32,000 nt of DNA, from positions 60,001-92,000 of the forward strand of contig JAPZAR010000007.1 in the NCBI GenBank assembly GCA_027460535.1, given 5' to 3'. The position numbers and the translations under genes are program-made. Below the pieces are notes generated by a model. That model saw only the letters and a program-made list of their open reading frames with translations. It had not been told where the DNA came from and did not search any database. Source of the DNA: Candidatus Methanoperedens sp. GTDB lineage: Archaea; Halobacteriota; Methanosarcinia; Methanosarcinales; Methanoperedenaceae. Positions 385 through 32,000 of the stretch are shown here, piece after piece (position 1 is the stretch's first letter; the number at the start of each line of letters is the position of its first letter).

Positions 385-498
385 GCGGCTGTGGTCCAGC
401 GGCTATGACAGGGGCTTCCCAACAGCCTTTTGCAGGCAAAAGCTTGATCAAAAGGAGGGAAATAGCCTCTAACCCGGGTTCGAATCCCGGCAGCCGCA
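385..498 (+). tRNA. tRNA-Gly (anticodon CCC) with an intron of about 42 nt at canonical position 37/38
   Basis: Manual cloverleaf. Perfect 7-bp acceptor GCGGCTG (385-391)/CAGCCGC (491-497) with discriminator A498. D arm 394-409 with a GG-containing loop. Anticodon stem GGGGC (411-415)/GCCTC (465-469). Loop TTCCCA..A gives anticodon CCC (418-420). T arm CCGGG-TTCGAAT-CCCGG (474-490). The insert at about 422-463 interrupts the anticodon loop. T417-C420 pair with G457-A460, next to the 3-nt bulge AAT (461-463), and C426-T431 pair with A450-G455. This is bulge-helix-bulge-like. CCA is not encoded. Confidence 0.85.
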
Positions 499-1208: not shown

Positions 1209-2375
1209 ATGCCAAGGAAATTATCTGACTTTCGTTTAGCATCGCAAGAAGAAATAGAAAGTGTGGGTTATGGTGGCGCAGGAATATTTACAGGGGCCCC
1301 TGGTGGATTCCACAGAACAATTATTTATAAATTAATGAACGAAACTTTTGGTCCGCCAAATACTTATGCAGGAGACAAATCTACTTGGGAATGGATTATT
1401 TATACTAACGCTGGTCTTTTGACAATATATGATTATAAGGGAGATTGGTCAATCGGATATGCTAGTACAAATCTAAAGCTATCTATTGAATTATTAAATG
1501 AAGCATCTGCATTACAGGATGCTCTGCTAATAGAGGCAGATAAAATTCATTTTTCAAAAATGCAAATTCAGAAACTAAAGGTTGGAGGAGCTATCTTAAA
1601 TCCTTATTCTTTGTATCGTAATACAACAGAGGATTTGATAAGACAGACTAGCGAGATAATTAAAGAGATAGAGAGTTTACAAAAAGAAAGAGATATTAAT
1701 AAAACTCTTGACTCTTTTGCTAAATCTCAATTTGTGTCATCCTTAAATAGGTCAGCATTTATGACTACATTTTTGAGTTTAGAAGGCTTTATAAACCTTG
1801 TATATACACTGTTCCTAAAAAATAGATATCGGAATGATATATACGACAAACGGCTTAGAAATGAAATGCTTCCGATAAAAATTTTAGAAATGGATGTATA
1901 TTGCCATTCATTCAAAAGCTCTCCACTAGAAAAAAATGGTGAATTATTTGGTGCGATTCAACATTTTATAAATACAAGAAATCTAATATTACATGCAAAT
2001 ATATCTGATGCAATGGAAGAGCATATTATTAAACAGGATACAAATTTACTTGTCTTGAAGCGCAAAGAGGAAAAAGAGAAATATGGAATAGCATCAGACA
2101 TAATGAATCTCAATAACGTCAATGTTATTAGAGCAAATAAGTTAGTTCAAAAGTTTGTAGCGAAAGTACTTCAATCTCTTGCTGAAGATGTAAAAATTCC
2201 TTTTACTATGGTTCATTCCAATCTTTGGGTGGAATATCGCCATGAAGAACCAGACTCAATTTTTTTCCCTTTAAGTGAAGATGACTATGTCCCGTTAAAA
2301 GAAATCAGGTCAATTTTGAAGGAGTCCACAGAACTGGACGAAGATTATTATAATATTAGTGAGAAAAAATTTTAA
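1209..2375 (+). CDS. Orphan 388-aa protein with an unknown N-terminal domain and a C-terminal HEPN-like domain (putative RNase/abortive-infection-type effector)
   Basis: Long ORF in an AT-rich island with a TATA-like ATATAAAAA about 40 bp upstream. 'INTRNLILHAN' contains R257-x4-H262 (nt 1977-1994), the Rx4-6H signature of HEPN nucleases, in the common R-N-x-x-x-H form. It is preceded by the predicted helix 'AFMTTFLSLEGFINLVY' with a conserved acidic residue. I do not recognise residues 1-95 (GYGGAGIFTGAPGG...WEWIIYTNAGLLTIYDYKGDWSIGY). Confidence 0.45.
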   Translation: MPRKLSDFRLASQEEIESVGYGGAGIFTGAPGGFHRTIIYKLMNETFGPPNTYAGDKSTWEWIIYTNAGLLTIYDYKGDWSIGYASTNLKLSIELLNEASALQDALLIEADKIHFSKMQIQKLKVGGAILNPYSLYRNTTEDLIRQTSEIIKEIESLQKERDINKTLDSFAKSQFVSSLNRSAFMTTFLSLEGFINLVYTLFLKNRYRNDIYDKRLRNEMLPIKILEMDVYCHSFKSSPLEKNGELFGAIQHFINTRNLILHANISDAMEEHIIKQDTNLLVLKRKEEKEKYGIASDIMNLNNVNVIRANKLVQKFVAKVLQSLAEDVKIPFTMVHSNLWVEYRHEEPDSIFFPLSEDDYVPLKEIRSILKESTELDEDYYNISEKKF

Positions 2376-2506
2376 ACCTATGTTTGATAATATATTATAA
2401 TTATTCAAATATAATTATTATTTATAAACTATCCTTTCATTTAGTTTATACACACCCATAACCCCGTATTTTGAAATGCGTAAAACAAAAAATTATACGC
2501 AATTAA

Positions 2507-3136
2507 TCAATCATATGGAAAAAGCGTTCGTTCCCTTTTCAATTTTATTCCATGAATGAGAGCGACTTCATTTTTTTGTTCCTCTATACTTATGTAGTGT
2601 CCGTGTTTTAACATGTAATACCCAAAGATTGGCAAAATAATTGCTAATAAAATATAGTACACTGAGGGACTTATTTTTTCGGTAAGAAAACGAACAATAG
2701 CAACTATTGACATCACAAATCCTCCAAGTAAAGACGCAGACCCTATAGACATTTCTAATACAGAAAAGTAAGTCAATCTTTCAAGTGAATTTAATACTTT
2801 CTCATCGTAATTATCTATCAAATCTTGTAAGATAGTATATTGACTTTTATAATCATAGGGGGATTTATAGAGGGTATTTATAGAATCCTTCTCAATGGGA
2901 CAGATTACCTCAGTCGCAATGCGATGTAGTGCTACCCCAGCTATATAAAAAATCGCCAAGAAACCAATTAATTTTGAAGATAGTTGCGGAAGATCAATCT
3001 CTCCCCATAATGTATAGTTAAAAATACTGATAAATAGTCCACCAGCAATGAGATAAACAAGATCACGACCAAAGAAATGCGAGTAAAACCCTTCCATCAT
3101 TGAACCTTGGACGTCATTCATTGTTTCACCGTTCAA
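2507..3136 (-). CDS. Orphan integral membrane protein (about 4 TM segments, 209 aa)
   Basis: ORF with four hydrophobic stretches (LVYLIAGGLFISIF, LIGFLAIFYIAGVAL, IGSASLLGGFVMSIVAIV, VYYILLAIILPIFGYYML) and a soluble loop of about 50 aa. Convergent with the 1209-2375 gene. No recognisable family motif. Confidence 0.55.
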   Translation of the reverse strand: MNGETMNDVQGSMMEGFYSHFFGRDLVYLIAGGLFISIFNYTLWGEIDLPQLSSKLIGFLAIFYIAGVALHRIATEVICPIEKDSINTLYKSPYDYKSQYTILQDLIDNYDEKVLNSLERLTYFSVLEMSIGSASLLGGFVMSIVAIVRFLTEKISPSVYYILLAIILPIFGYYMLKHGHYISIEEQKNEVALIHGIKLKRERTLFPYD

Positions 3137-7764: not shown

Positions 7765-7968
7765 ATGACAGTATCTTCATGGTGGAAATCAAGACGTGAA
7801 ATACTGACCAGTATAGCAAAACCTAAAGCTACAAGAGCTAAAATCAAAAAAGGTAAAGCAAAAAAAGTAATCGAAAAGAAGAAAGCTGTAAAGACAAGAA
7901 AGGTAATTAAAATGAAGAAAGCAACGAAATCAACCAAGGCAACAAAGGCAAAAAAGAAGTCAAGATAA
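7765..7968 (+). CDS. Small, extremely lysine-rich basic protein (67 aa), possibly nucleic-acid binding
   Basis: GGAGG lies 7 nt upstream of the ATG and an AT-rich TATA-containing region lies upstream. 23 Lys and 5 Arg of 67 residues (my count), in AKK/KKK/TKATKAKKK repeats resembling histone H1 tails. A candidate terminator follows. Confidence 0.55.
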   Translation: MTVSSWWKSRREILTSIAKPKATRAKIKKGKAKKVIEKKKAVKTRKVIKMKKATKSTKATKAKKKSR

Positions 7969-8007
7969 GGTTTAATTAATTCACATTGCCTACACTTTTT
8001 AGAAATT

Positions 8008-8034
8008 ACAGCATTGCTGTTATTTTTTATTTTT
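8008..8034 (+). terminator. Candidate terminator (hairpin plus T-rich tract) after the lysine-rich gene
   Basis: ACAGC (8008-8012) pairs with GCTGT (8016-8020), followed by TATTTTTTATTTTT (8021-8034). Confidence 0.4.
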
Positions 8035-8330
8035 ACAAAAAGATGAAATCCTCTACGAGGATTATACCTGGAATGCATATTTAAATAATGAGAATTTTAC
8101 ACACTTTGTGCAATTTCGCCAATTATCTGTTCCCAGAAATTCATTACGACCCGTAAACACATGCAGGAACTTGAAAACCGTTTGAATATTTGATACATCA
8201 ATATTGTAGAAAGTGATAATTAAGCTGAATCTTTGGGATATTTTTTGCCTGATGAATTCCTCAAGAAACTCGCAACGATGGTTTAATGTGATTTTTATTA
8301 CAGATATCAATGATAAATCTCATCCTAATT

Positions 8331-9125
8331 TTAGGAGATTTTTAGAGCCTGATCAATCTTTAAACGCTCGAAAATATCAGAAAAAATCAATACAATACCA
8401 ATAACGCGATTCCTATCATCTTTGATTGTTGAACCGATAATATCAACAGGTATTTTCAATCCTTCTTTTGTTATCAATAGCGTATTATCAGCCAGACCGT
8501 AGAAAATATCTTCTCTGATTGCTTTCATTATAGGATTCTCTATCTTTTCGTCCGTTCCCTCGTTTATGACATTGAAGACGGTTGTCAGAGGTTTCCCCAA
8601 GGAATCTTCCCGTTTCCAACTAGTTAGTGCCTCTGCAAAAGGGTTCATAAATTTTATGATTCCTTTTTCATCCGTTGCGATCACAGCCTCGCCCAGATTT
8701 CTAAGGATTGCAGCAAGCCATTGCTCGCTCTCTTTTAATTCTCTTTCCATCTTATGCTTGTAGAGAGCTATTTCAATATTGATCTGCAATTCCCTTTCAT
8801 CGAATGGTTTAAGGATATAGCCAAATGGCTCTGTTATTTTTGCCCGTTCAAGTATTATTTTATCTGAATAAGCAGTGAGATACACAACCGGAATATTGAA
8901 AACGGAACGTATTTGCTTTGCAGCCGCTATCCCATCCATTTCTCCCCGGAGCATAATATCCATCAGCACTAAATCCGGAATATCCTCTTCCACCTTTTTT
9001 ATAGCCTCTTCCCCTGATGATACTATCCCAAGAACCATATACCCCATATCCTGCAGACTTTCTCTTATGTCCTCCGCAGTAATAATTTCATCTTCCACAA
9101 TCAATATTCTTTTTTCTGCCATCAT
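8331..9125 (-). CDS. Response regulator: CheY-like receiver plus PAS domain
   Basis: 'KRILIVEDEIITAEDI...DLVLMDIMLRGEMDG...LTAYSD...KPF' is a canonical receiver with phospho-acceptor Asp. The C-terminal half 'EQWLAAILRNLGEAVIATDEKGIIKFMNPFAEALTSW' is a PAS fold. ATGA overlap with the upstream kinase gene. Confidence 0.9.
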   Translation of the reverse strand: MMAEKRILIVEDEIITAEDIRESLQDMGYMVLGIVSSGEEAIKKVEEDIPDLVLMDIMLRGEMDGIAAAKQIRSVFNIPVVYLTAYSDKIILERAKITEPFGYILKPFDERELQINIEIALYKHKMERELKESEQWLAAILRNLGEAVIATDEKGIIKFMNPFAEALTSWKREDSLGKPLTTVFNVINEGTDEKIENPIMKAIREDIFYGLADNTLLITKEGLKIPVDIIGSTIKDDRNRVIGIVLIFSDIFERLKIDQALKIS

Positions 9126-15411: not shown

Positions 15412-16728
15412 TTAAAGCCCAACCTCTTTCATAAGCTCTTTTTCTGTTATCATATTCTTCAGTTTCTCAGCCTCGTTTCCGTATTGCTCAGATAATTCTG
15501 TGTACCTGGCTTCTGTTATTTCACCTTGAGCAAGCTTTTCATCCAGTTTTTCAAGAAGTGCATTGATTTTATTGAGCTTTTCCTTTTGCTTTTTTAATTC
15601 GTCAATAGTCCCTTGGGGTTTTTCGGGAATAGCAGGATGCGGGACTGGCATGGGTGCAGGAGTTGGTATGAAGGCAGATGTTGTGGATTTCTTGCAGTGT
15701 GGACATTGGGTTAATGTTTCTAATTTTTCTTTTCCACAATATTTACATAATTCAAGATTTGCTTTTGGTCTTGCTATAAGATATATTAACAGACCAACTA
15801 AAAATAAGAAGAATGCTGCAATTCCCCACAGGATTCCGCTTTTTCCCCGCTTATTGGCATCTCTGACGATCCAGATTATAATATATATCCAGATAATAAA
15901 TAATATTAAACTGAAACTGAACGCCATAATGATTGGATCAGTTGAACTTTCTTGTACTGGTGTGAATGCTGGTCTGCCCTTTGCCTCTACGATAATCTTA
16001 AGCACCGTGACGCCTGTAACAGGTTTACAGGTTTCTCCGGTTTGGTATCCACAGCCCCATGTCCAGATAAGATCATAATAACCAGGTTCTTGATTTATTG
16101 GAGCCCTTATCGTATAGTATTTTTGAGGGTTCTCTCCCGGGCCAATTTCACCGAAATCTATGCGTCTTGGTGTGACCCATGATGCTGCATTACCCGAAGC
16201 GTCAGCCCAGGCATACAACCCATGTTCATCACTCCTGGCTGAAAAAGATAAATAATCATTTAATTCATCTCCCTGCGCCACTGTAAGAGATTTATACTCA
16301 CTAGGGGATGTTGTTGGTGCGGACTCCACTTCTACAGTGATTTGAAGCACTGTATCACTTATGGACGTGCAGGTCGTTCCATCCGTATATTTGCAGCTAT
16401 ATTTCCAGATCAACTCGTAATAGCCGGGTTTTTGACTCCTGGGAACACTTATCGTATACTCCCGTTCAATTCTTTCTCCAGGATCGATTGGACCGAAATC
16501 TATGCGTCTTGGTGTGGCCCATGATGCTGCATTACCCGAAGCGTCAGCCGCGGCAAATAAGCGCTTATATGCCCCTGTAAAACTGGTAGTCTGGGTTAGT
16601 TCTTCTCCCGGTGTTAAAGTAAGAGATACGTAATTATGCTCAATAGCTGAAGCTGTGTTAGTTAGGAAAATAAAAAAAATAACCAGAATAACGTATTGTA
16701 TTCTACTCGTAATATTTTCCTTTTTCAT
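15412..16728 (-). CDS. Envelope-cluster protein B: signal peptide, 2 tandem Cys-pair beta-sandwich-like repeats, PLDc_N-like 2-TM hairpin, zinc ribbon, SHOCT
   Basis: N-terminal 'VILVIFFIFLTNTASA' signal. Two repeats of about 114 aa, each with 'DASGNAASW.TPRRIDFG' and a Cys pair. 'IIWIVRDANKRGKSGILWGIAAFFLFLVGLLIYLIARP' resembles the PLDc_N membrane hairpin. 'CKYCGKEKLETLTQCPHCKK' is a CxxC..CxxC ribbon. The C-terminal 'LAQGEITEARYTELSEQY' is SHOCT-like. Confidence 0.7.
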   Translation of the reverse strand: MKKENITSRIQYVILVIFFIFLTNTASAIEHNYVSLTLTPGEELTQTTSFTGAYKRLFAAADASGNAASWATPRRIDFGPIDPGERIEREYTISVPRSQKPGYYELIWKYSCKYTDGTTCTSISDTVLQITVEVESAPTTSPSEYKSLTVAQGDELNDYLSFSARSDEHGLYAWADASGNAASWVTPRRIDFGEIGPGENPQKYYTIRAPINQEPGYYDLIWTWGCGYQTGETCKPVTGVTVLKIIVEAKGRPAFTPVQESSTDPIIMAFSFSLILFIIWIYIIIWIVRDANKRGKSGILWGIAAFFLFLVGLLIYLIARPKANLELCKYCGKEKLETLTQCPHCKKSTTSAFIPTPAPMPVPHPAIPEKPQGTIDELKKQKEKLNKINALLEKLDEKLAQGEITEARYTELSEQYGNEAEKLKNMITEKELMKEVGL

Positions 16729-18235
16729 GGAGAAATGAACGAATTTTTTTCAGTTTCGCTGAATCGCTTTCAAGATTCATGACTTTGCTTTTCAATTCGG
16801 AAATCTTTTTCATATACTTGTTTTTCAAATCATTATAAGTCTGGTCTGAAATCTCTTTATTTACAAGCCTGCTTCCGAGATTGCCAAGGAGATTCTCGTC
16901 TTTCTTTATCGCTCCCTGCATCTGCAACGCATCGTTTTCAGGCTTTGCGATTTCAGCATCCAGCATTGAAATTGCGGTATTCAACCCAAAACTCAGGTAG
17001 TTCCTGGTATCGATATCGAGATTCTCAGGCGGCAAAAGACTATGCTGTTTTCTTTTTTCAGCTTCGAACGCTGATTCTTTTTCTATCTTTGGATTAATTT
17101 TTACCTGTTCTTCCTTATACCCTTCCTCAATATGTGGTGGCAGCGAATCATCAACCTCTGACGCACCAACCTCTACTGCTGTTGGGGTTTTAGCTTTCCC
17201 TGATATATTTTTAAATGTTTTATATACCTTATTAAAAATTACATATGCCATAAAAATCATCGCAAATATGGCTATAAGCCCCAAAATTATAGATGAACCA
17301 TCGGATGTTCCTCCATCGTTTGGGGTAATTGTTGATGTGATTTCCCCGGCAGACCTTACTGTTATGGGTTCCTTCAAAATTTCTTCTTTTTTTGTCTTTA
17401 TGTCGTCCCCAAAATAATATACAACCCATCCTTCCACAACAAAATCGCCTATTTCGTTAGGCTTTAATCTCACTTCAATATCTCTGGTTGCGCCGGGTTC
17501 AAGCTTGTATGTCGAAGTATATTGCCCTGCTGCACCCTGAGTGAATTCTGTTGAAGCAACAGACATGCCGGAAGGGGGTTTTATAATTACCTGAACATTC
17601 ATAACAGGTTTTGTAATAAGATTGACCACAGACAATCTTAACAGAACGTCCTCCCCGACTACCACATTTATTTTCTCCCTATGAAGCGAAACGCTTGCGG
17701 ATAGTTCTTTGACAGTTTCTATGGGTGTTGGAGTAGGAGCTGTACCGGTAGCGGGTTTTATGAGTGTAAACGAATTTGTAATTTTGTCCAGGTCATCTGA
17801 AAAAAATGGATAGTCACTTGTCAGTGAACCCCCTGTTATTACAAAATAATTATTGCCTGATAAAATGAGTACCTGCCTTTCCTTATATTCTTTCTGTTGA
17901 TACTCTTCATAAAACATCAATTCTTTACCGGTCACACCATTAATTGCTACATAATTTTCACTAAAGGGGTAAACACCCAAACTGTTGAGATATCTTATTC
18001 TATCACCTACTATTTCGTCAAAACTCATCCCCTCGGAAGGCACAACAACAACTTTTACCCACGCGCGCCCGGTCTGGCTGCTAAAAGTCTGGTCAGAACC
18101 GTCAGGTTCTTCGATATAATTCCAGCCTGTTGGGTATACTACCTTAAAATCTCCTCCGATATTTGTAAACGTATAAGCTGAAGCATTATTAATTAAAAGT
18201 ACAATAAGTAAAAAAAATAAAATTGTTTTTTTCAT
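16703..18235 (-). CDS. Envelope-cluster protein C: signal peptide, PsbP/Mog1-like domain, beta-sandwich surface domain, TM, cytoplasmic tail with SHOCT-like helix
   Basis: Signal 'ILFFLLIVLLINNASA'. 'FKVVYPTGWNYIEEPDG...' resembles PsbP/DUF1795-type folds. After a TPTPTP linker, 'NVVVGEDVLLRLSVVNLITKPVMNVQVIIKPPSGMSV...AAGQYTSTYKLEPGATRDIEVRL' follows the same pattern as the domain shared by proteins D and E. TM segment 'IILGLIAIFAMIFMAYVIF'. The tail 'LVNKEISDQTYNDLKNKY' is SHOCT-like. The start overlaps the stop of D (ATGA). Confidence 0.65.
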   Translation of the reverse strand: MKKTILFFLLIVLLINNASAYTFTNIGGDFKVVYPTGWNYIEEPDGSDQTFSSQTGRAWVKVVVVPSEGMSFDEIVGDRIRYLNSLGVYPFSENYVAINGVTGKELMFYEEYQQKEYKERQVLILSGNNYFVITGGSLTSDYPFFSDDLDKITNSFTLIKPATGTAPTPTPIETVKELSASVSLHREKINVVVGEDVLLRLSVVNLITKPVMNVQVIIKPPSGMSVASTEFTQGAAGQYTSTYKLEPGATRDIEVRLKPNEIGDFVVEGWVVYYFGDDIKTKKEEILKEPITVRSAGEITSTITPNDGGTSDGSSIILGLIAIFAMIFMAYVIFNKVYKTFKNISGKAKTPTAVEVGASEVDDSLPPHIEEGYKEEQVKINPKIEKESAFEAEKRKQHSLLPPENLDIDTRNYLSFGLNTAISMLDAEIAKPENDALQMQGAIKKDENLLGNLGSRLVNKEISDQTYNDLKNKYMKKISELKSKVMNLESDSAKLKKIRSFLHEKGKYYE

Positions 18236-26814: not shown

Positions 26815-27122
26815 GCGAGAGAGGAAGGGCGGCTACCGGCGGCAACGCTGAGGAAAGTCCCCTCACCATCTGGACCGCGGACACATGCAAGTGTGTAGGG
26901 TGAGAATCCTGGCTCTGGAACAGAAACGATACCGCTGCGCAGAAATGCGATGAGCTCGAAAGAGCGAGGTCATGCGTATTGCGGATGGAACGGCGAATCC
27001 CCGCGGGTGCAAGCCGAAATAGGACAGAAAGGGCAGTCCAGACCTGTCCGAGTACGGCGCATAGCTGAATGCTGCACGGCATTGCCCCTTGCGCTGAACA
27101 TAAAGGGGCTTACTCTCCTCAC
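26815..27122 (+). ncRNA. rnpB: RNase P RNA, archaeal type
   Basis: The universally conserved CR-I 'GAGGAAAGTCC' is at 26850-26860. CR-V-like 'ACATAAAGGGGCTTAC' is at 27098-27113, and its GGGGCTT pairs with AAGTCCCC to form P4. 'TAGGGTGAGAA' and 'ACAGAAA' are conserved-region-like elements. GAGAG at the 5' end can pair with CTCTC at the 3' end (P1). The ends are approximate to about 5 nt. Confidence 0.88.
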
Positions 27123-29947
27123 TCAAACTTATTCTGGGAACAGAAGATTTTTGCTCTTTCGAGATTTCTTGAAATTACCCGATAAGCCTCAGGAAATTCC
27201 TCTTTTGAATATATTTTCAGCGCCTCTTCATAAGCGTCGATTGATTTCTTGCAGTTCTCAGCTTTGTTCTCTACCTCGGCAAGAGTTCCATAGGCAGTAC
27301 CGAGATTGTTCTGCGTCATTGCATAGTCCATTGGGAAACGGTCAGGTGTTCTGACTTTGAGCGCCTCTTCATAAGCGTCGATTGATTTCTTGCAGTTCTC
27401 AACTTCGTTCTCTACCTCGGCAAGAGTTCCATAGGCAGTACCGAGATTATTCTGCGTCATTGCATAGTCCATTGGGAAACGGTCAAGTGTTCTGACTTTG
27501 AGCGCCTCTTCATAAGCAGCAATTGATTTCTTGCAGTTCTCAGCTTTGTTTTCAACCTCGGCAAGAGTTTGATAGGCAGCACCGAGATTGTTCTGGGTCA
27601 TCGCATACTGCATAGGGAAGCGGTCTGATGTATAGACTTTCAGCGCCTCTTCACAAGCAGCGATTGACTTCTTGCAGCTCTCGGCTTTGTTCTCAACCTC
27701 TGCAAATATTCGATAGGCAGTGCCGAGATTGTATTGAATCATGGAATACTGCATGGGGAAGCGGTCTAGTGTGTAGTCCTTCAGCGCCTCCTCATAAGCT
27801 GCAATTGATTTCTTGCAGTTCTCAGCCGTGTTCTCTACTTCAGCGAGTATTCGATAAGCATTGCCGAGATTGTTCTGGATAGCAGCATACTGCATGGGGA
27901 AGCGGTCTAGATTATAGACCTTCAAGGCTTCCTGACAAGCTGCAATTGCTTTCTTGCAGTTCTCAGCCGTTTTCTCTACTTCAGCAAGCGTTCGATAGGC
28001 ATTGCCGAGATTGTTCTGGGTCATTGCATAACCCATAGGGGAGAGGTCTAGTGTTGTAACTTTAAGAGCCTCTTCATAAGCTGCAATTGCCTTCTTGCAG
28101 TTTTCAGCTTTGTTCTCAACCTCTGCAAGTAGTTGATAAGCATTGCCGAGATTGTTCTGGGTAGTAGCGTACTGCATAGGGAAGCGGTCAAGTGTATAGA
28201 CTTTCAGCGCCTCTTCACAAGCAGCGATTGATTTCTTGCAGTTCTCAGCTTTGTTCTCAACCTCTGCAAATATTCGATAGGCATTGCCGAGATTGTTCTG
28301 GGTCATCACAAAATCCATAGGGTAATCCTTAAAAGTATAGACTTTCAGCGCTTCTTCAAACGCTGTTATTGCTTTCTTGCAGTTCTCAGCTTTGTTCTCA
28401 ACCTCTGCAAGAGTTTGAAAGGCATTGCCGAGATTGTTCTGGATACTAGCATAGTCCATAGAGAAGCGGTCTGGTGTATAGATTTTCAGCGTATCCTCAA
28501 AAATTACTATTGATTTCTTGCAGTTCTCAGCTTTATTCTCTACCTCGGCAAGAGTTCCATAGGCAGTACCGAGATTGTTCTGGGTAGTAGCATACTGCAT
28601 GGGGAAGCGGTCAAACGTTCTGACTTTAAGCGACTCTTCGAAAGCTGCTATTGATTTCTTGCAGTTCTCAGCTTTGTTCTCAACTTCAGCAAGTGTTCCA
28701 CAGGTAATGCCTAGATTGTTCTGGGTGGTAGCATACTGTATGGGGAAGAGGTCAAGTGTATAGACTTTGAGCGCTTCTTCATAAGCAGCTATTGACACCT
28801 TCATATAATATTTTTTATTAATGTCTACTATTCCAATACCATAAGCTCTATTTCCAAGACTGAACAAAGCCTCTGCATCACCCGAAAAGAAGCCAGCGAT
28901 TTTCGTGAAAAAGCTGATTCTGTCTGCTTCAATTCCATCAGGCTCTATTACAGAGTCAAGATATGCTTCTTCTGCCCAGATGACTTCATCGTTTATAATT
29001 TTTATAAAATTCTTTTTTTCAATATTCGAAAATAGAACATCTATTCGGTATTTCTCCAAGTTTATACCGAACAAAACCTTGCCAAGATGAAGAATTCGTT
29101 TTATAGAAAATTTCTCTTTTTCTTGATAAATCCCTGCTTTGTAAAGTGACCTTATGCTCTTTAGAACTGCTTTCTCTTCTGGACTGCTTTCTCCGAACCT
29201 TGCTATCATTATATCGAGAGGCATTACAAGCGAACCTATTTTACCATCAAATTCTAATGGTTTCCACTCGACCCCTATTTTCGCTGCAATTTCTTTTCCT
29301 TTTTCATCTGGAATTTCTTCCGGAAAGCTTATACTGTTCTCTTTCTTAAATAAAGAGTTGAGCCACTCCATCTTTTGCAATTTTTCAAACTCAATACCTG
29401 AACGGCATGAAGCGATTATAACAGCTTTATTTTTAAGAAACTCTTCAACCAGATACCTAAAATTTTGTTTTTCAATGAATTTATCAATATCATCCAGAAC
29501 AACTATGGTTTTTCTCCAGAAAGTAAGTTTGAGTGGTACTTCAAATTTTTCTAAATCAATATCCTGAATTCTTGGAATTATAACATTGGAAACAGGATTC
29601 ATGGTCTTAAGGGCTTCATAAATCGCTCTCGTTTTTCCAGAAAGCGGCGCACCGACAACCAAAACATGATCTCCGTTATCAATTACTTTTTTGAGCGACC
29701 GGTATTCATCTAATTCATAATATGCAAGCATGGGTCGCCTGAAAAGATCTTCTGGTTTAATGGAACTGGATTTTTTCCCATGAACTACATAGATATTATT
29801 CAAACGTTTGTATTCATTGATAGTAAAACTTACAAGATATGCATAGGCAGAAATTACAGCAATTAGAATCGCTACAGAAGCTTCCACATGGTTGCGAGAA
29901 AATTCTAAGATTGAATAGATAATATTACTTACCACATTTCGCTCCAT
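27119..29947 (-). CDS. Membrane-anchored P-loop NTPase (AAA+/STAND-like) with eleven 47-aa TPR-like repeats
   Basis: N-terminal TM 'ASVAILIAVISAYAYLVSFTI'. Walker A 'GAPLSGKT' (aa 99-106, nt about 29630-29653). Walker B 'IVVLDDID' (aa 148-155). A helical middle region of about 200 aa follows. Then 11 tandem units of consensus 'FPMQYAMTQNNLGNAY..LAEVENKAENCKKSIAAYEEALKVYTLDR', where NLGNAY/..Y.EAL are TPR signature positions. Confidence 0.8.
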   Translation of the reverse strand: MERNVVSNIIYSILEFSRNHVEASVAILIAVISAYAYLVSFTINEYKRLNNIYVVHGKKSSSIKPEDLFRRPMLAYYELDEYRSLKKVIDNGDHVLVVGAPLSGKTRAIYEALKTMNPVSNVIIPRIQDIDLEKFEVPLKLTFWRKTIVVLDDIDKFIEKQNFRYLVEEFLKNKAVIIASCRSGIEFEKLQKMEWLNSLFKKENSISFPEEIPDEKGKEIAAKIGVEWKPLEFDGKIGSLVMPLDIMIARFGESSPEEKAVLKSIRSLYKAGIYQEKEKFSIKRILHLGKVLFGINLEKYRIDVLFSNIEKKNFIKIINDEVIWAEEAYLDSVIEPDGIEADRISFFTKIAGFFSGDAEALFSLGNRAYGIGIVDINKKYYMKVSIAAYEEALKVYTLDLFPIQYATTQNNLGITCGTLAEVENKAENCKKSIAAFEESLKVRTFDRFPMQYATTQNNLGTAYGTLAEVENKAENCKKSIVIFEDTLKIYTPDRFSMDYASIQNNLGNAFQTLAEVENKAENCKKAITAFEEALKVYTFKDYPMDFVMTQNNLGNAYRIFAEVENKAENCKKSIAACEEALKVYTLDRFPMQYATTQNNLGNAYQLLAEVENKAENCKKAIAAYEEALKVTTLDLSPMGYAMTQNNLGNAYRTLAEVEKTAENCKKAIAACQEALKVYNLDRFPMQYAAIQNNLGNAYRILAEVENTAENCKKSIAAYEEALKDYTLDRFPMQYSMIQYNLGTAYRIFAEVENKAESCKKSIAACEEALKVYTSDRFPMQYAMTQNNLGAAYQTLAEVENKAENCKKSIAAYEEALKVRTLDRFPMDYAMTQNNLGTAYGTLAEVENEVENCKKSIDAYEEALKVRTPDRFPMDYAMTQNNLGTAYGTLAEVENKAENCKKSIDAYEEALKIYSKEEFPEAYRVISRNLERAKIFCSQNKFE
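27180..28800 (-). repeat. 141-bp tandem coding repeats (about 11.5 copies) inside the NTPase-TPR gene
   Basis: The marker GCGCCTCTTC recurs at 27220, 27361 and 27502 (period 141). Units 27220-27360 and 27361-27501 differ at 4 of 141 positions by manual alignment. More N-terminal units are more diverged. Confidence 0.9.
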
Positions 29948-30066
29948 TTACGTCGTGAAATTATAGCGGTTGTGTTATATAATCTTTATTAAGTGAAATA
30001 TTTGTTACAGTTTCCTTTCCACAGCACAAATCAATTAGCTGAAAAATCAATATTGATTTGACAGAA

Positions 30067-30248
30067 ATGCCAGACGAAGTATTAAAAACGGTTGCAGGGC
30101 TTGATCTGTATTATCTGGTTTTAGATATTCTGATGTTGGTAATAGTGTACCATATGAAGACGTTGATTACGAAGATGCCGAAGATGGAATTAATAAAGAT
30201 GAACAGATAGTAGAGTTATTTAAAGAACGACCACGTAAAGAAGATTAA
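30067..30248 (+). pseudogene. Decayed HEPN-domain toxin gene remnant (C-terminal part, frameshifted) upstream of MNT
   Basis: Two frames together read '...VAGLDLYYL' (frame from ATG 30067), then 'GFRYSDVGNSVPYEDVDYEDAEDGINKDEQIVELFKERPRKED*' (frame open only from 30105). This resembles the '..L..yY...RYP.......y..eeA......a..i...' C-terminus of HEPN partners of MNT. Its TAA (30246-30248) directly abuts the MNT ATG. The N-terminal half to two-thirds of a normal HEPN is absent. Confidence 0.5.
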
Positions 30249-30584
30249 ATGGCATTTGACAGAAAGGTATCCTATTTTTTGAATAAATATCTAGGTAAGA
30301 TAAAATCAATTTACGCACCGGACGAAATGTGGCTCTGGGGGTCAAGGGCATACGGCAGCCCTGGAGAGTACAGCGATATAGACCTTATCGTAGTGTCAAG
30401 AAAGTTTTCGGATATAAAGTTCATACGAAGAATGTACAAGTTCATAGAAACGATTGGATTGCTAGGTGATAAAAATGCGGAAGCGGTTGATGTTTTATGC
30501 TATACTCCTAATGAGTTTGCACGAAAGAGGGAACAAATCAGCATCGTTAATGAGGCAATTAGAAAGGGAATAAGGATTATCTGA
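30249..30584 (+). CDS. Minimal nucleotidyltransferase (MNT, NTP_transf_2 family), antitoxin-type
   Basis: 'LWGSRAYGSPGEYSDIDLIVV' is the G-S-x(9-11)-D-x-D polymerase-beta-type nucleotidyltransferase signature. 111 aa, the typical MNT size. Confidence 0.8.
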   Translation: MAFDRKVSYFLNKYLGKIKSIYAPDEMWLWGSRAYGSPGEYSDIDLIVVSRKFSDIKFIRRMYKFIETIGLLGDKNAEAVDVLCYTPNEFARKREQISIVNEAIRKGIRII

Positions 30585-30714: not shown

Positions 30715-32000
30715 ATGCCCTCTATCATCGACCCTATCTACGGCCACGTGGGAATAAACAGACTTGAGCAGCTCATCATCAGCACGCCTGAGATGGCGCG
30801 TCTCCGCCGGATACAGCAGCTCGGTCTTGCTGACATTGCTTTCCCCGGGGCGAACCACACACGTTTTGAGCACAGTGTTGGAACACTTTTTATTGCGGAT
30901 AAAATGGCAAAGGCTCTGGGTCTTTCACAGGAGGAGGTAGCAAAAGTCAGGCTTGCAGCCCTGCTCCATGATATCGGGCACTGCGCATTCTCGCATGTGG
31001 TGGAAAGCGTACTTAAACGGAACCCTGCGTACCAGCCTGTGATCGATGGCAGGAGATTTCTGAAACATGAGATGTTCACAAGATACATAATATCTAATTC
31101 ATTTCATACAAAACCAGAAATTGCATCTTTGGTGGTGGATGCCAAATCATTTTTTGAAGAGATCGCAAAAATGGCGACTGGCGATGTCGATGGCCTCTCA
31201 AAACCATATCTTGCCCAGATCATCTCTGACGATCTCGATGCGGACAGGATCGATTTCCTGCTGCGGGATTCGTATCATACAGGGGTCTCCCTAGGACTTG
31301 TAGATGTGGACCAGATCGTAGGAAGCTTATCGCTGAGCAACGGAAGGATAGTTCTGGGAGGCTCACTAAGTTACGATGAGGATATGTCTCTGACTGCGGC
31401 AGAATCCATGCTTATCGCCAGGGCCCACCACTACTCTGCGATAATTCACAACCCGAAAACCCAGGGGGCGAGGGTCATGCTTCTCCAGGCTCTCGATAAA
31501 GCTCTTGCGCGCTACAAAGAAACGGGAAACGACGTAAAAGCAGTGGTACTGAAATTTTTTACCGCCTATACCGACACCGACCTGTTGAATTTCATAGAAG
31601 CTCACGGAGATGCCAGCGCAAAAAATCTGATAGACCATATCCGCCATGCAAATATTTGCAGCGCTGTTGTCCGTTTCACTCACAAGAATCTTAACCCCAG
31701 GACCCGTATGGCACTTTCCACGATCGCAAGGAATGGAGTTGCGAAGAAGATGTTTGAGGAGGAGCTTTCCAGGCGTTTTGCAAAGAAATACGGGGCATCC
31801 GTTCTTGTTGACCTTGATGTTGCAAGCGGGATCCCCAGAAGCACACGGATAAAAATAGGGGATTATGAGGGGTTCTTATATGATGAATCCGCGCTGGCCA
31901 ATGGTCTTGTAAGGGCCATCTCGCGTCAAATATCGTTATGTGTATTCTCAAGAACAGAGGACGACGCCAGGCTTTCTCAGGCCTCTCACGATTTCCTTCT
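30715..32000 (+). CDS. HD-domain phosphohydrolase, dNTP triphosphohydrolase-like (COG1078-type), 3' end beyond window
   Basis: Open frame from ATG 30715 to the window end, absent from the ORF track because there is no stop. 'TRFEHSVGT', 'LLHDIGHCAFSH' and 'DADRIDFLLRDSYHTG' are the H...HD...D metal-binding blocks of SAMHD1/EF1143-like HD phosphohydrolases. Confidence 0.8.
   Translation, partial: MPSIIDPIYGHVGINRLEQLIISTPEMARLRRIQQLGLADIAFPGANHTRFEHSVGTLFIADKMAKALGLSQEEVAKVRLAALLHDIGHCAFSHVVESVLKRNPAYQPVIDGRRFLKHEMFTRYIISNSFHTKPEIASLVVDAKSFFEEIAKMATGDVDGLSKPYLAQIISDDLDADRIDFLLRDSYHTGVSLGLVDVDQIVGSLSLSNGRIVLGGSLSYDEDMSLTAAESMLIARAHHYSAIIHNPKTQGARVMLLQALDKALARYKETGNDVKAVVLKFFTAYTDTDLLNFIEAHGDASAKNLIDHIRHANICSAVVRFTHKNLNPRTRMALSTIARNGVAKKMFEEELSRRFAKKYGASVLVDLDVASGIPRSTRIKIGDYEGFLYDESALANGLVRAISRQISLCVFSRTEDDARLSQASHDFL

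Follow-up and report, generated by a model that had tools for sequence, protein, structure and literature searches.

A predicted membrane-anchored STAND NTPase with a near-consensus 47-residue TPR-like array in Candidatus Methanoperedens, a candidate NLR-like immune switch

A stretch of 32,000 nucleotides from Candidatus Methanoperedens sp. (contig JAPZAR010000007.1, positions 60,001 to 92,000; hereafter the window) contains a gene whose product joins a hydrophobic helix to a nucleoside triphosphatase (NTPase) and a long array of highly similar repeats. The question raised by this locus is what such a protein does: whether it acts as an immune receptor, as a membrane-tethered switch for a signal of the cell's own, or no longer at all. 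In our analysis, the balance tips slightly towards a membrane-anchored NTPase switch resembling the nucleotide-binding leucine-rich repeat (NLR) receptors, with an immune mechanism based on the clustering of transmembrane (TM) helices. The protein probably senses a foreign protein, and we infer an immune role for it; an antiviral function is plausible but unproven.

From the N- to the C-terminus, the protein is composed of a hydrophobic helix, an NTPase with Walker A and Walker B motifs, a helical and winged-helix arm, and a superhelix of eleven units resembling the tetratricopeptide repeat (TPR). The initial annotation had described the same order of TM helix, Walker A/B NTPase, helical arm, and solenoid of 47-residue units, and the open reading frame (ORF), the motifs, and a full-length AlphaFold2 model of the 942-residue protein (pLDDT 92.9, pTM 0.82) agree with it. 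The motifs quoted there were located at residues 99-106 (GAPLSGKT), 148-155 (IVVLDDID), and 176-184 (VIIASCRSG). A 100%-identical partial protein is MCZ7370391.1, from a Candidatus Methanoperedens metagenome-assembled genome (MAG). The gene and its N-terminal parts are laid out as follows, in window coordinates.

27119..29947, minus strand: complete coding sequence of 942 amino acids plus stop codon, with an ATG start, from the ORF list
29891..29938, minus strand: N-terminal helix, residues 4-19 (AlphaFold2 helix), predicted to be outside the membrane or on its surface
29819..29887, minus strand: predicted single TM helix, residues 21-43 (Kyte-Doolittle hydropathy; AlphaFold2)
29744..29791, minus strand: conserved linker YVVHGKKSSSIKPEDL, residues 53-68, leading as the first β-strand into the NTPase (family consensus; AlphaFold2 strand 53-59)
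29324..29722, minus strand: P-loop NTPase core, nSTAND3-like, residues 76-208 (Pfam match; fold matches to Orc/Cdc6 and to STAND proteins, the signal transduction ATPases that have numerous domains)
29630..29653, minus strand: Walker A motif, GAPLSGKT, residues 99-106, read from the sequence
29483..29506, minus strand: Walker B motif, IVVLDDID, residues 148-155, read from the sequence
29396..29422, minus strand: VIIASCRSG strand, residues 176-184 (AlphaFold2 strand 176-182)
28892..29323, minus strand: helical and winged-helix domains, residues 209-352 (AlphaFold2 helices 214-311 and β-hairpin; fold alignments)
29231-29251, minus strand: FDGxIGS motif, residues 233-239, with F233, D234, and G238 invariant

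Around Walker A, residues G99, P101, L102, G104, K105, and R107 are invariant or nearly so throughout the family. D152 and D153 of Walker B are nearly invariant as well, as are A179, C181, and G184 of the VIIASCRSG strand, which presumably marks the STAND/AAA+ sensor-1 arginine position by analogy with the 'TTR' of NB-ARC and the 'TSR' of NACHT domains. The AlphaFold2 model of the arm has helices over residues 185-311 followed by a β-hairpin (315-317/322-325), at a pLDDT of about 90, and a model of residues 46-352 built from the family alignment reached a pLDDT of 88.0 and a pTM of 0.78. Foldseek searches with the NTPase arm returned SSO1545 (2fna) with the best E-value (2.1e-7; template-modelling score normalized to the query, TMq, 0.51), the SIR2-STAND protein EfAvs5 (9jap) with the highest query score (0.62), and Avs4 (8dgf; TMq 0.49-0.52), with further matches to Orc1/Cdc6, SAMD9, AVAST5, and Apaf-1. 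The fold alignments to SSO1545, Orc1/Cdc6, Avs4, Avs5, and SAMD9 extended over 300-400 columns and covered the arm. The generic AAA+ proteins RFC and ClpB matched as well, and the fold by itself would therefore also fit a non-STAND AAA+ protein.

Searches of the PDB with the NTPase-arm sequence and two family profiles found no STAND match and no related NTPase; the matches were TPR proteins and weak four-fold matches to de novo TIM barrels, the latter being spurious. The classification was therefore based on the fold, the motifs, and a transitive link to the Pfam family nSTAND3 (PF20720), which has a gathering threshold of 27.2 bits. Residues 76-208 score 13.5-15.3 bits against nSTAND3 (E 0.017-0.058), under this threshold. 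Among ten diverse family members scanned, nSTAND3 was the top Pfam NTPase match in eight, with one score over the threshold (33.2 bits, E 5.1e-8) and one of 26.5 bits. The STAND criteria in the sense of Leipe et al. (2004) are present, namely Walker A and B motifs, helical and winged-helix domains C-terminal to the core, and C-terminal repeats. The NTPase of Avs5 has been annotated as nSTAND3 (10.1101/2025.07.08.663546), in agreement with the rank of Avs5 among the fold matches. Taken together, the protein is a STAND NTPase of an nSTAND3-related family that lies outside PF20720 as now defined; we call it related to nSTAND3 rather than a member because its own score is under the threshold and only one of ten relatives passes. 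The STAND/NLR-like label initially given to the protein thus holds for the architecture, through the fold matches and through nSTAND3 in relatives, but is not carried by the protein's own nSTAND3 score.

C-terminal to the arm, the protein continues as an array of repeats.

28745..28891, minus strand: divergent lead-in TPR, residues 353-401, with 'LGNRAY' (AlphaFold2 helices 358-372 and 378-392)
27194..28744, minus strand: eleven canonical 47-residue TPR-like units, residues 402-918, the proposed ligand-binding solenoid (Tandem Repeats Finder; Pfam; AlphaFold2)
27122..27193, minus strand: C-terminal capping helix, residues 919-942 (AlphaFold2 helix 919-938)

Tandem Repeats Finder reported a single array at 27215-28795 with a period of 141 nt, 11.2 copies, 81% matches, 0% indels, and a score of 1721, and Pfam recognized the repeats as TPR_12 (E 1.2e-45) and TPR_10 (E 6.2e-22). 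Both confirm the eleven self-similar 47-residue TPR-like repeats that had been noted from the sequence. Each canonical unit has Q(N/Y)NLG and, in the AlphaFold2 model, is built of a helix A of 19 residues, a turn of 4, a helix B of 15-16, and a loop of 9. Structure prediction of the solenoid had been proposed as a check; when run, it gave a superhelix covering residues 353-942 in the confident full-length model (pLDDT 92.9), which matched the TPR superhelices of OGT, SPY, consensus CTPR, and LGN, as well as the archaeal STAND-TPR protein 6mfv. The cap, with the pattern 'FPExYxxxxxNLExxxxF', is kept in orthologues that have few repeats. The array shares the helix-turn-helix and a long loop between units, with a conserved proline at its end, with the kinesin-light-chain-type repeats of TPR_12 and TPR_10, which have units of ~42 residues, whereas the unit here has 47 residues and its A-B hairpin bears a conserved 'AEVExKAENCKK' signature. 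NCBIfam matches to FlcA, AfsR, and HaaT were rejected as partial TPR matches far under their cut-offs. Pfam matches of the repeats to BST2, KBP_C, and others were likewise rejected as low-complexity helical matches that were sub-threshold or had no individually significant stretch.

The mean identity of the eleven units to their consensus is 0.83, a value computed in the spirit of the Psim measure of T-REKS and not by T-REKS itself. High internal conservation (HIC) of NLR sensors has been delimited by a Psim of 0.70 together with an ATPase domain (PMC13449251), and the repeats, at 0.83 versus 0.70, qualify as HIC by this criterion. In pairwise comparison, the DNA of the units is 70-87% identical, with a single pair at 95%. 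Synonymous divergence between repeats (dS) is 0.69, and the ratio of nonsynonymous to synonymous divergence (dN/dS) is 0.23 overall and 0.11 on 37 scaffold positions. Because a dS of 0.69 goes together with a scaffold dN/dS of 0.11, the units have long been under purifying selection; the repeats are an old array and not recent copies.

Helix-A positions 2, 5, 9, 12, and 13, which we take from the TPR literature to be the canonical ligand-contact set, were fixed beforehand as the test set. The ratio of nonsynonymous to synonymous differences (pN/pS) on these positions is 0.99, and among 20,000 random sets of five codons, 200 matched the pN of the preset set and 501 matched its ratio. The most variable positions of the unit are 30, 37, 40, and 41, which correspond to TPR helix-A positions 2, 9, 12, and 13. 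The same four positions (40, 37, 30, and 41) have the highest within-protein entropy in independent homologues from which the query was excluded. We presume from knowledge of TPR structure that the variable helix-A positions lie on the concave face. The array thus shows a conserved scaffold and a freely varying surface.

A word-indexed search found 19 relatives of the protein, and an exhaustive profile search over cluster representatives found 1,379 at E<=1e-3, 758 at <=1e-10, and 281 at <=1e-30. Traits were counted in the 142 new proteins among the best 150 of the profile matches, of which 107 are N-terminally complete. A TM-like helix precedes the NTPase in 74 of these 107, a long N-terminal extension without a TM helix is present in 12, and 21 have neither. 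The C-terminus is at least 140 residues long in 87 of the 142 representatives, and the best period is 47 with a lag identity of at least 0.2 in 60 of those 87. A hidden Markov model of the window's repeat unit recognized 561 units in 116 of the fetched proteins, with a spacing of exactly 47 in 381 cases. By these counts (74/107 and 60/87), the TM helix and the 47-residue period are family-defining traits; both had been called unusual in the initial annotation, and this does not hold within the family, where they are the norm. The relatives belong to Methanoperedens, Ca. Ethanoperedens, Chloroflexota, Cyanobacteria, Bacteroidota (Saprospiraceae), and Ignavibacteriales. What is new here is the family itself, which is large, escapes Pfam and PADLOC when their thresholds are applied, and combines a strict 47-residue near-consensus TPR with a single-helix anchor. 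Precedents exist for STAND proteins with a TPR sensor, for TM N-terminal modules in Avs-like proteins, and for HIC repeats in NLRs.

In an Ignavibacteria MAG (JAIOIK010000025.1, L013:3772-8121), two family paralogues of 707 and at least 621 amino acids stand in tandem, which suggests local duplication.

The N-terminus indicates how the protein would be placed in the cell. Residues 21-43 reach a Kyte-Doolittle mean of up to 2.28 over 19 residues, and the AlphaFold2 model has one unbroken helix over residues 21-52. Positive charges come after the hydrophobic helix (K46, R47, K57, and K58). By the positive-inside rule, this fits a predicted single-pass N-out/C-in anchor with the remainder of the protein in the cytoplasm, and helix 4-19 is placed on the outer side because the K/R-rich segment comes after the TM helix. 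The linker into the NTPase has the consensus 'WKKSSxLxPxxxLGxR' across the family and is kept also in effector-fused members.

A Pfam scan of ten members with a long N-terminal extension recognized an effector domain in six. The domains matched in the slot of the TM helix were the following.

Schlafen/AlbA_2 (SLFN_AlbA_2), in two members, E 2.3e-18 and 5.7e-12
Caspase (Peptidase_C14), E 1.5e-7
Trypsin_2, E 5.9e-15
Calcineurin-like phosphoesterase (Metallophos), E 1.7e-13
HNH_2, a weak match under the gathering threshold, E 0.0026

More distant relatives, at 23-31% identity, have sensors made of pentatricopeptide repeats (PPRs); one of them bears an N-terminal TIR domain (TIR_2, E 4.3e-13), and another adjoins a tyrosine integrase. 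A TM helix and a long N-terminal extension occur together in only one of the 74 TM-bearing representatives. Because the helix and the enzymatic effectors are mutually exclusive at one position, the TM helix appears to substitute for an effector. Defence STANDs have been recognized by an N-terminal module that varies while the NTPase-sensor chassis stays constant (PMC13581612).

A mechanism can be proposed on this basis. At rest, the TPR arm would keep the NTPase monomeric and closed at the cytoplasmic face of the membrane. A protein ligand, most plausibly of viral or mobile-element origin, would dock on the concave face of the solenoid and free the NTPase for NTP exchange or binding, after which the protein would oligomerize. 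The oligomer would gather the N-terminal TM helices and thereby perturb or permeabilize the membrane, so that the cell would stop growing or die before the invader can spread. The slot that nucleases, proteases, or NADases occupy in other members would thus be filled by the TM helix.

A Saprospiraceae MAG (JAEUUV010000290.1, L014:5333-8169) encodes a distant relative that is nSTAND3-like and has a PPR sensor. Its N-terminus, HITVPGNHNIVVQGISGSHVTLNFT, resembles the C-terminus, SVTVSGDGNNVVQDVAQSTVQINVS, of an upstream protein of 128 amino acids. The shared motif lies within the first 30 residues and has 10 of 25 positions identical (40%) in an ungapped alignment (E 1e-4). We take this pair to resemble the amyloid signalling motif pairs associated with NLRs (HET-S/NWD2 and bacterial BASS).

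The TM helix may be a tether and not an effector, as it is a single helix predicted to be constitutively inserted. In that case, the protein could be an immune or conflict sensor tethered at the membrane, the first place that viral proteins or DNA would reach, with ligand sequestration, NTP depletion, or an unlinked effector as its output. We consider this arrangement improbable. It would account for a single hydrophobic helix that runs on into the first NTPase strand and does not belong to a multi-helix pore-forming domain, and in the distant Saprospiraceae relative a short shared motif appears to link it in signalling to a separate protein encoded upstream. However, no conserved partner gene was seen beside the TM-bearing members at the loci examined, and the mutual exclusion of TM helix and enzymatic effectors, with both in 1 of 74, fits poorly with a mere tether.

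Among known systems, Avs5 (AVAST type 5, SIR2-STAND) is alike in the order of effector slot, STAND NTPase with winged helix, and α-helical repeat sensor. It also has the top query TM-score (0.62, 9jap), and nSTAND3 is the top Pfam NTPase across the present family. Avs5 homologues also use TPR, Sel1, or PPR sensors (10.1101/2025.07.08.663546), and PPRs occur here in the distant relatives. Unlike Avs5, the Methanoperedens protein has a single TM helix in place of SIR2, is only 13-14% identical in structural alignment, is unrecognized by PADLOC and under the nSTAND3 threshold, and has a near-identical 47-residue array in place of an irregular repeat domain; its antiviral role is one that we infer.

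HIC-repeat NLRs, such as the fungal NWD/HNWD and NB-ARC-TPR proteins, have been reported in all domains of life (PMC13449251). They are alike in combining an ATPase with near-identical units that differ at few hypervariable positions. A repeat number that varies between orthologues may be a further likeness; here it comes from metagenome assemblies, in which repeats can collapse. Fungal HIC repeats are typically 80-100% identical and maintained by recombination, whereas the units here are 70-95% identical at the DNA level with a dS of ~0.69; it is mainly purifying selection on an old array that keeps them alike. In archaea, HIC-ATPase proteins mostly have WD40 repeats (PMC13449251), in contrast to the TPRs of the Methanoperedens protein. 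The latter also differs in its proposed TM-helix effector.

In the plant resistosomes of the ZAR1 type, formed by coiled-coil NLRs, a triggered oligomer of the nucleotide-binding oligomerization domain (NOD) clusters N-terminal helices at the membrane. The sensor-triggered oligomerization proposed here, which would gather N-terminal helices, is analogous to these resistosomes and to what may be expected of other TM-bearing STANDs. In contrast to ZAR1, the helix here is predicted to be constitutively inserted, no amphipathic helix would be released on activation, and the NTPase belongs to a different clade. 'TM' is one of the N-terminal domain types given for proteins with the Avs7 sensor in common (PMC13581612). 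SSO1545 (2fna) is alike in having the best Foldseek E-value (2.1e-7) for the NTPase and winged-helix arm, and the Pyrococcus STAND-TPR protein (6mfv), an archaeal NTPase-TPR protein, was recovered with the full-length model. Unlike the present protein, neither was related at the sequence level in the PDB searches, and their entry descriptions, on which this comparison is based, mention no TM helix and no regular 47-residue array.

Several findings weigh against an immune function, in addition to the sub-threshold nSTAND3 score and the possibility of a mere tether. PADLOC gave no meaningful match on the 942-residue protein; a JetC match was compositional and fell on the helical repeats, matches to mad8 (E 0.014) and CARF were marginal, and all were rejected. 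A pattern-based search of low recall, run with a five-sequence alignment, found no relative on viral contigs and gave nine genome loci, a small context sample. In these nine species-representative genomes, the neighbours are mostly housekeeping genes, including DnaK/DnaJ/GrpE/HrcA, SecY with ribosomal proteins, PurL, and PFK, and defence genes are not enriched. In Methanoperedens, the slot between the HD phosphohydrolase gene and the RNase P RNA gene is a conserved chromosomal position. The order of HD gene, STAND gene, and RNase P RNA gene is kept in three genomes (the window and the Methanoperedens-type contigs L002 and L018), and the STAND gene is therefore vertically inherited there. On a bacterial metagenome contig (k141_118854, L001:7566-12047), the homologue P0011 is part of a cluster of PAS, response-regulator, and histidine-kinase genes. 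Enzymatic effectors are infrequent, with long extensions in 12 of 107 representatives, about a tenth, and a domain recognized in six of the ten scanned. Published criteria ask for at least 10% annotated effectors or for context enrichment, with 10% as the cut-off of a 'low-confidence defence clade', and TM helices are not scored as annotated effectors (PMC13581612); the family, at or under 10%, is borderline at best. The signal at the helix-A positions is modest, as a pN/pS of about 1 indicates relaxed or diversifying selection and is no proof of positive selection. Finally, the repeat counts of the orthologues, given below, come from different species or strains in short-read metagenome assemblies and may include collapsed repeats.

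PADLOC was also run on 48 neighbour proteins of the genome loci, and each family listed was matched by one protein. Matches to DpdF, PsyrT, Cas3, and BrxH were not counted, being ascribed by inference to a single RecQ/DEAD-type helicase, and matches to ZorB were not counted as defence, being ascribed in the same way to an OmpA/MotB-type protein. At the P0011 locus, the homologue starts at 8001, directly after an upstream PAS-domain gene that ends at 8000, and 5 bases past it lies an OmpR-type response regulator, after which come a histidine kinase of the HAMP-PAS type and a phosphate ABC transporter. No other operon-like signalling context was seen.

The protein could instead be a non-immune STAND switch or scaffold, tethered to the membrane, that binds a protein or peptide of the cell itself, for instance a stress signal or a subunit of a membrane complex, and then, by NTP-dependent oligomerization, orders or controls a process at the membrane without causing cell death; we regard this as somewhat unlikely. 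The chromosomal position beside housekeeping genes, conserved in three Methanoperedens genomes, the housekeeping neighbourhoods in nine genomes, the place of P0011 between a PAS protein and a response regulator/histidine kinase pair, and the lack of a PADLOC match or of a relative in the low-recall viral-contig search are in its favour. So is a 2026 census in which 391 of 589 STAND clades were not defence-associated and were interspersed with defence clades (PMC13581612). A switch with a single housekeeping role, however, fits poorly with Schlafen, caspase, trypsin, phosphoesterase, and TIR domains in one slot, and no conserved partner gene or operon was found across the family loci examined. 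In addition, some orthologues are frameshifted or lack the P-loop, and the gene is therefore dispensable, while HIC repeats, variable helix-A positions, and a shifting repeat number are the pattern of an NLR sensor.

Defence or mobile neighbours were found at two of about 17 loci: a truncated family copy adjoins HNH, GmrSD, and UvrD genes, and a cyanobacterial one is found at the margin of an integrase/VapE island. For the Avs-type antiviral role that had been suggested for the protein, effector swapping and these two loci can be cited; PADLOC, the viral contigs, and the housekeeping neighbourhoods give no support, and the role is plausible at most. Housekeeping synteny without a link to defence had been named beforehand as evidence against such a role; synteny is indeed conserved within the genus, but the two family loci with defence or mobile neighbours depart from it.

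Copies of the gene in Methanoperedens differ in repeat number and integrity.

Window copy: eleven canonical units, intact
Orthologue P0003: three canonical units
Orthologues P0002, P0004, and P0006: one canonical unit each
L018 orthologue, 7797-8924: pseudogene with no canonical unit, whose reading frame is lost right behind the Walker A 'GKT' and continues in a different one
P0005, 358 amino acids, on four contigs: in-frame deletion of the P-loop from HVLVVGAPLSGKTRAIYEALK onward, with the TM helix, Walker B, and helical arm kept

In the L018 pseudogene, the TM region is gone and only the lead-in TPR and the cap remain, and P0005 may be a variant without NTPase activity or a copy in decay. 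A frameshifted and a P-loop-deleted orthologue would be expected if the gene were an inert, decaying relic whose repeats had expanded by slippage and duplication, and the codon usage of the N-terminal half is atypical (GC content at third codon positions, GC3, 0.29 in the NTPase half versus 0.52-0.57 in flanking genes). For the window copy, such a relic is nevertheless extremely improbable: the 2.8-kb frame is intact with all NTPase motifs, the dS of 0.69 with a scaffold dN/dS of 0.11 reflects long purifying selection, and the AlphaFold2 confidence is very high. The turnover of the orthologues and the low GC3 of the NTPase half also count in favour of the immune switch.

If the favoured reading of an NLR-like immune switch is true, a membrane-anchored archaeal branch would be added to the NLR-like immune receptors, and a family of more than 1,000 clusters that Pfam and PADLOC models miss would become defined. 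The near-consensus 47-residue repeat with four variable positions would then make specificity readable from sequence and open to engineering, and a STAND oligomer that acts through a single TM helix would offer a minimal system for studying NLR-type membrane damage. The protein would also be a candidate for sensing the Borgs and further large extrachromosomal elements that Methanoperedens hosts. A more elaborate version is an archaeal 'resistosome with a built-in anchor', in which a membrane-bound monomer would capture a virus, plasmid, or Borg protein, NTP-driven oligomerization would bundle the helices into an ion-conducting pore, the 47-residue units would serve as modular cassettes, and specificity would be re-tuned as units are gained, lost, or changed at the four helix-A positions. 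We hold this version to be quite unlikely; if true, it would be a prokaryotic counterpart of fungal HIC-NLR diversification, in a lineage that is rich in extrachromosomal elements and has no genetic system. Should the immune role fail, a widespread membrane-tethered NTPase switch would still merit a family model.

The gene is flanked in the window by the following features.

26817..27124, plus strand: archaeal RNase P RNA gene, a convergent neighbour outside the system (Rfam RF00373, 209.7 bits, E 2e-61)
30058..30584, plus strand: HEPN remnant with a frameshift and, after it, an MNT nucleotidyltransferase, inserted in a lineage-specific manner between the STAND and HD genes
30249-30584, plus strand: the MNT nucleotidyltransferase, intact, 111 amino acids (NTP_transf_2, E 7.5e-10)
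30715..32000, plus strand: HD and HD_assoc_2 phosphohydrolase, divergent, running off the window (Pfam E 5e-15 and 5.7e-10)

The MNT/HEPN relic and the HD phosphohydrolase had been noted as neighbours from the sequence, and the Pfam matches bear this out. The HEPN remnant matches at E 3e-4 on a frame-repaired peptide, over model positions 66-116 of 117 (a C-terminal fragment), and the MNT start codon abuts the HEPN stop; the element is probably a decaying toxin-antitoxin pair. As a functional partner of the STAND protein it was rejected, since it is absent from the orthologous loci L002 and L018 and its HEPN part is a frameshifted fragment. The RNase P RNA gene, on the opposite strand, overlaps the STAND gene by 6 nt (27119-27124), in which the latter has its last sense codon and its stop codon. 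A functional link to the RNase P RNA or the HD gene was rejected, because the STAND gene is convergent with the one and divergent from the other, and because outside Methanoperedens these genes do not adjoin it; the conserved adjacency is better explained by vertical inheritance.

Past the RNase P RNA gene lie genes for Trm112, aspartate-semialdehyde dehydrogenase, and an aminotransferase, and the rest of the window is ordinary chromosome, with homoserine dehydrogenase, Trm5/TYW2, a PAS histidine kinase with a response regulator, and a GTPase. At 385-498 (plus strand), Rfam matches a tRNA spanning 114 nt (46.4 bits), and ARAGORN in bacterial mode found no tRNA in the window; the match is consistent with an intron-containing archaeal tRNA. 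Four ORFs of 388, 209, 438, and 510 amino acids at 1209-3136 and 15412-18235 have no Pfam match at E<=1e-5. Their GC3 of 0.24-0.34 is low compared with the housekeeping genes of the window, and they may be further accessory genes.

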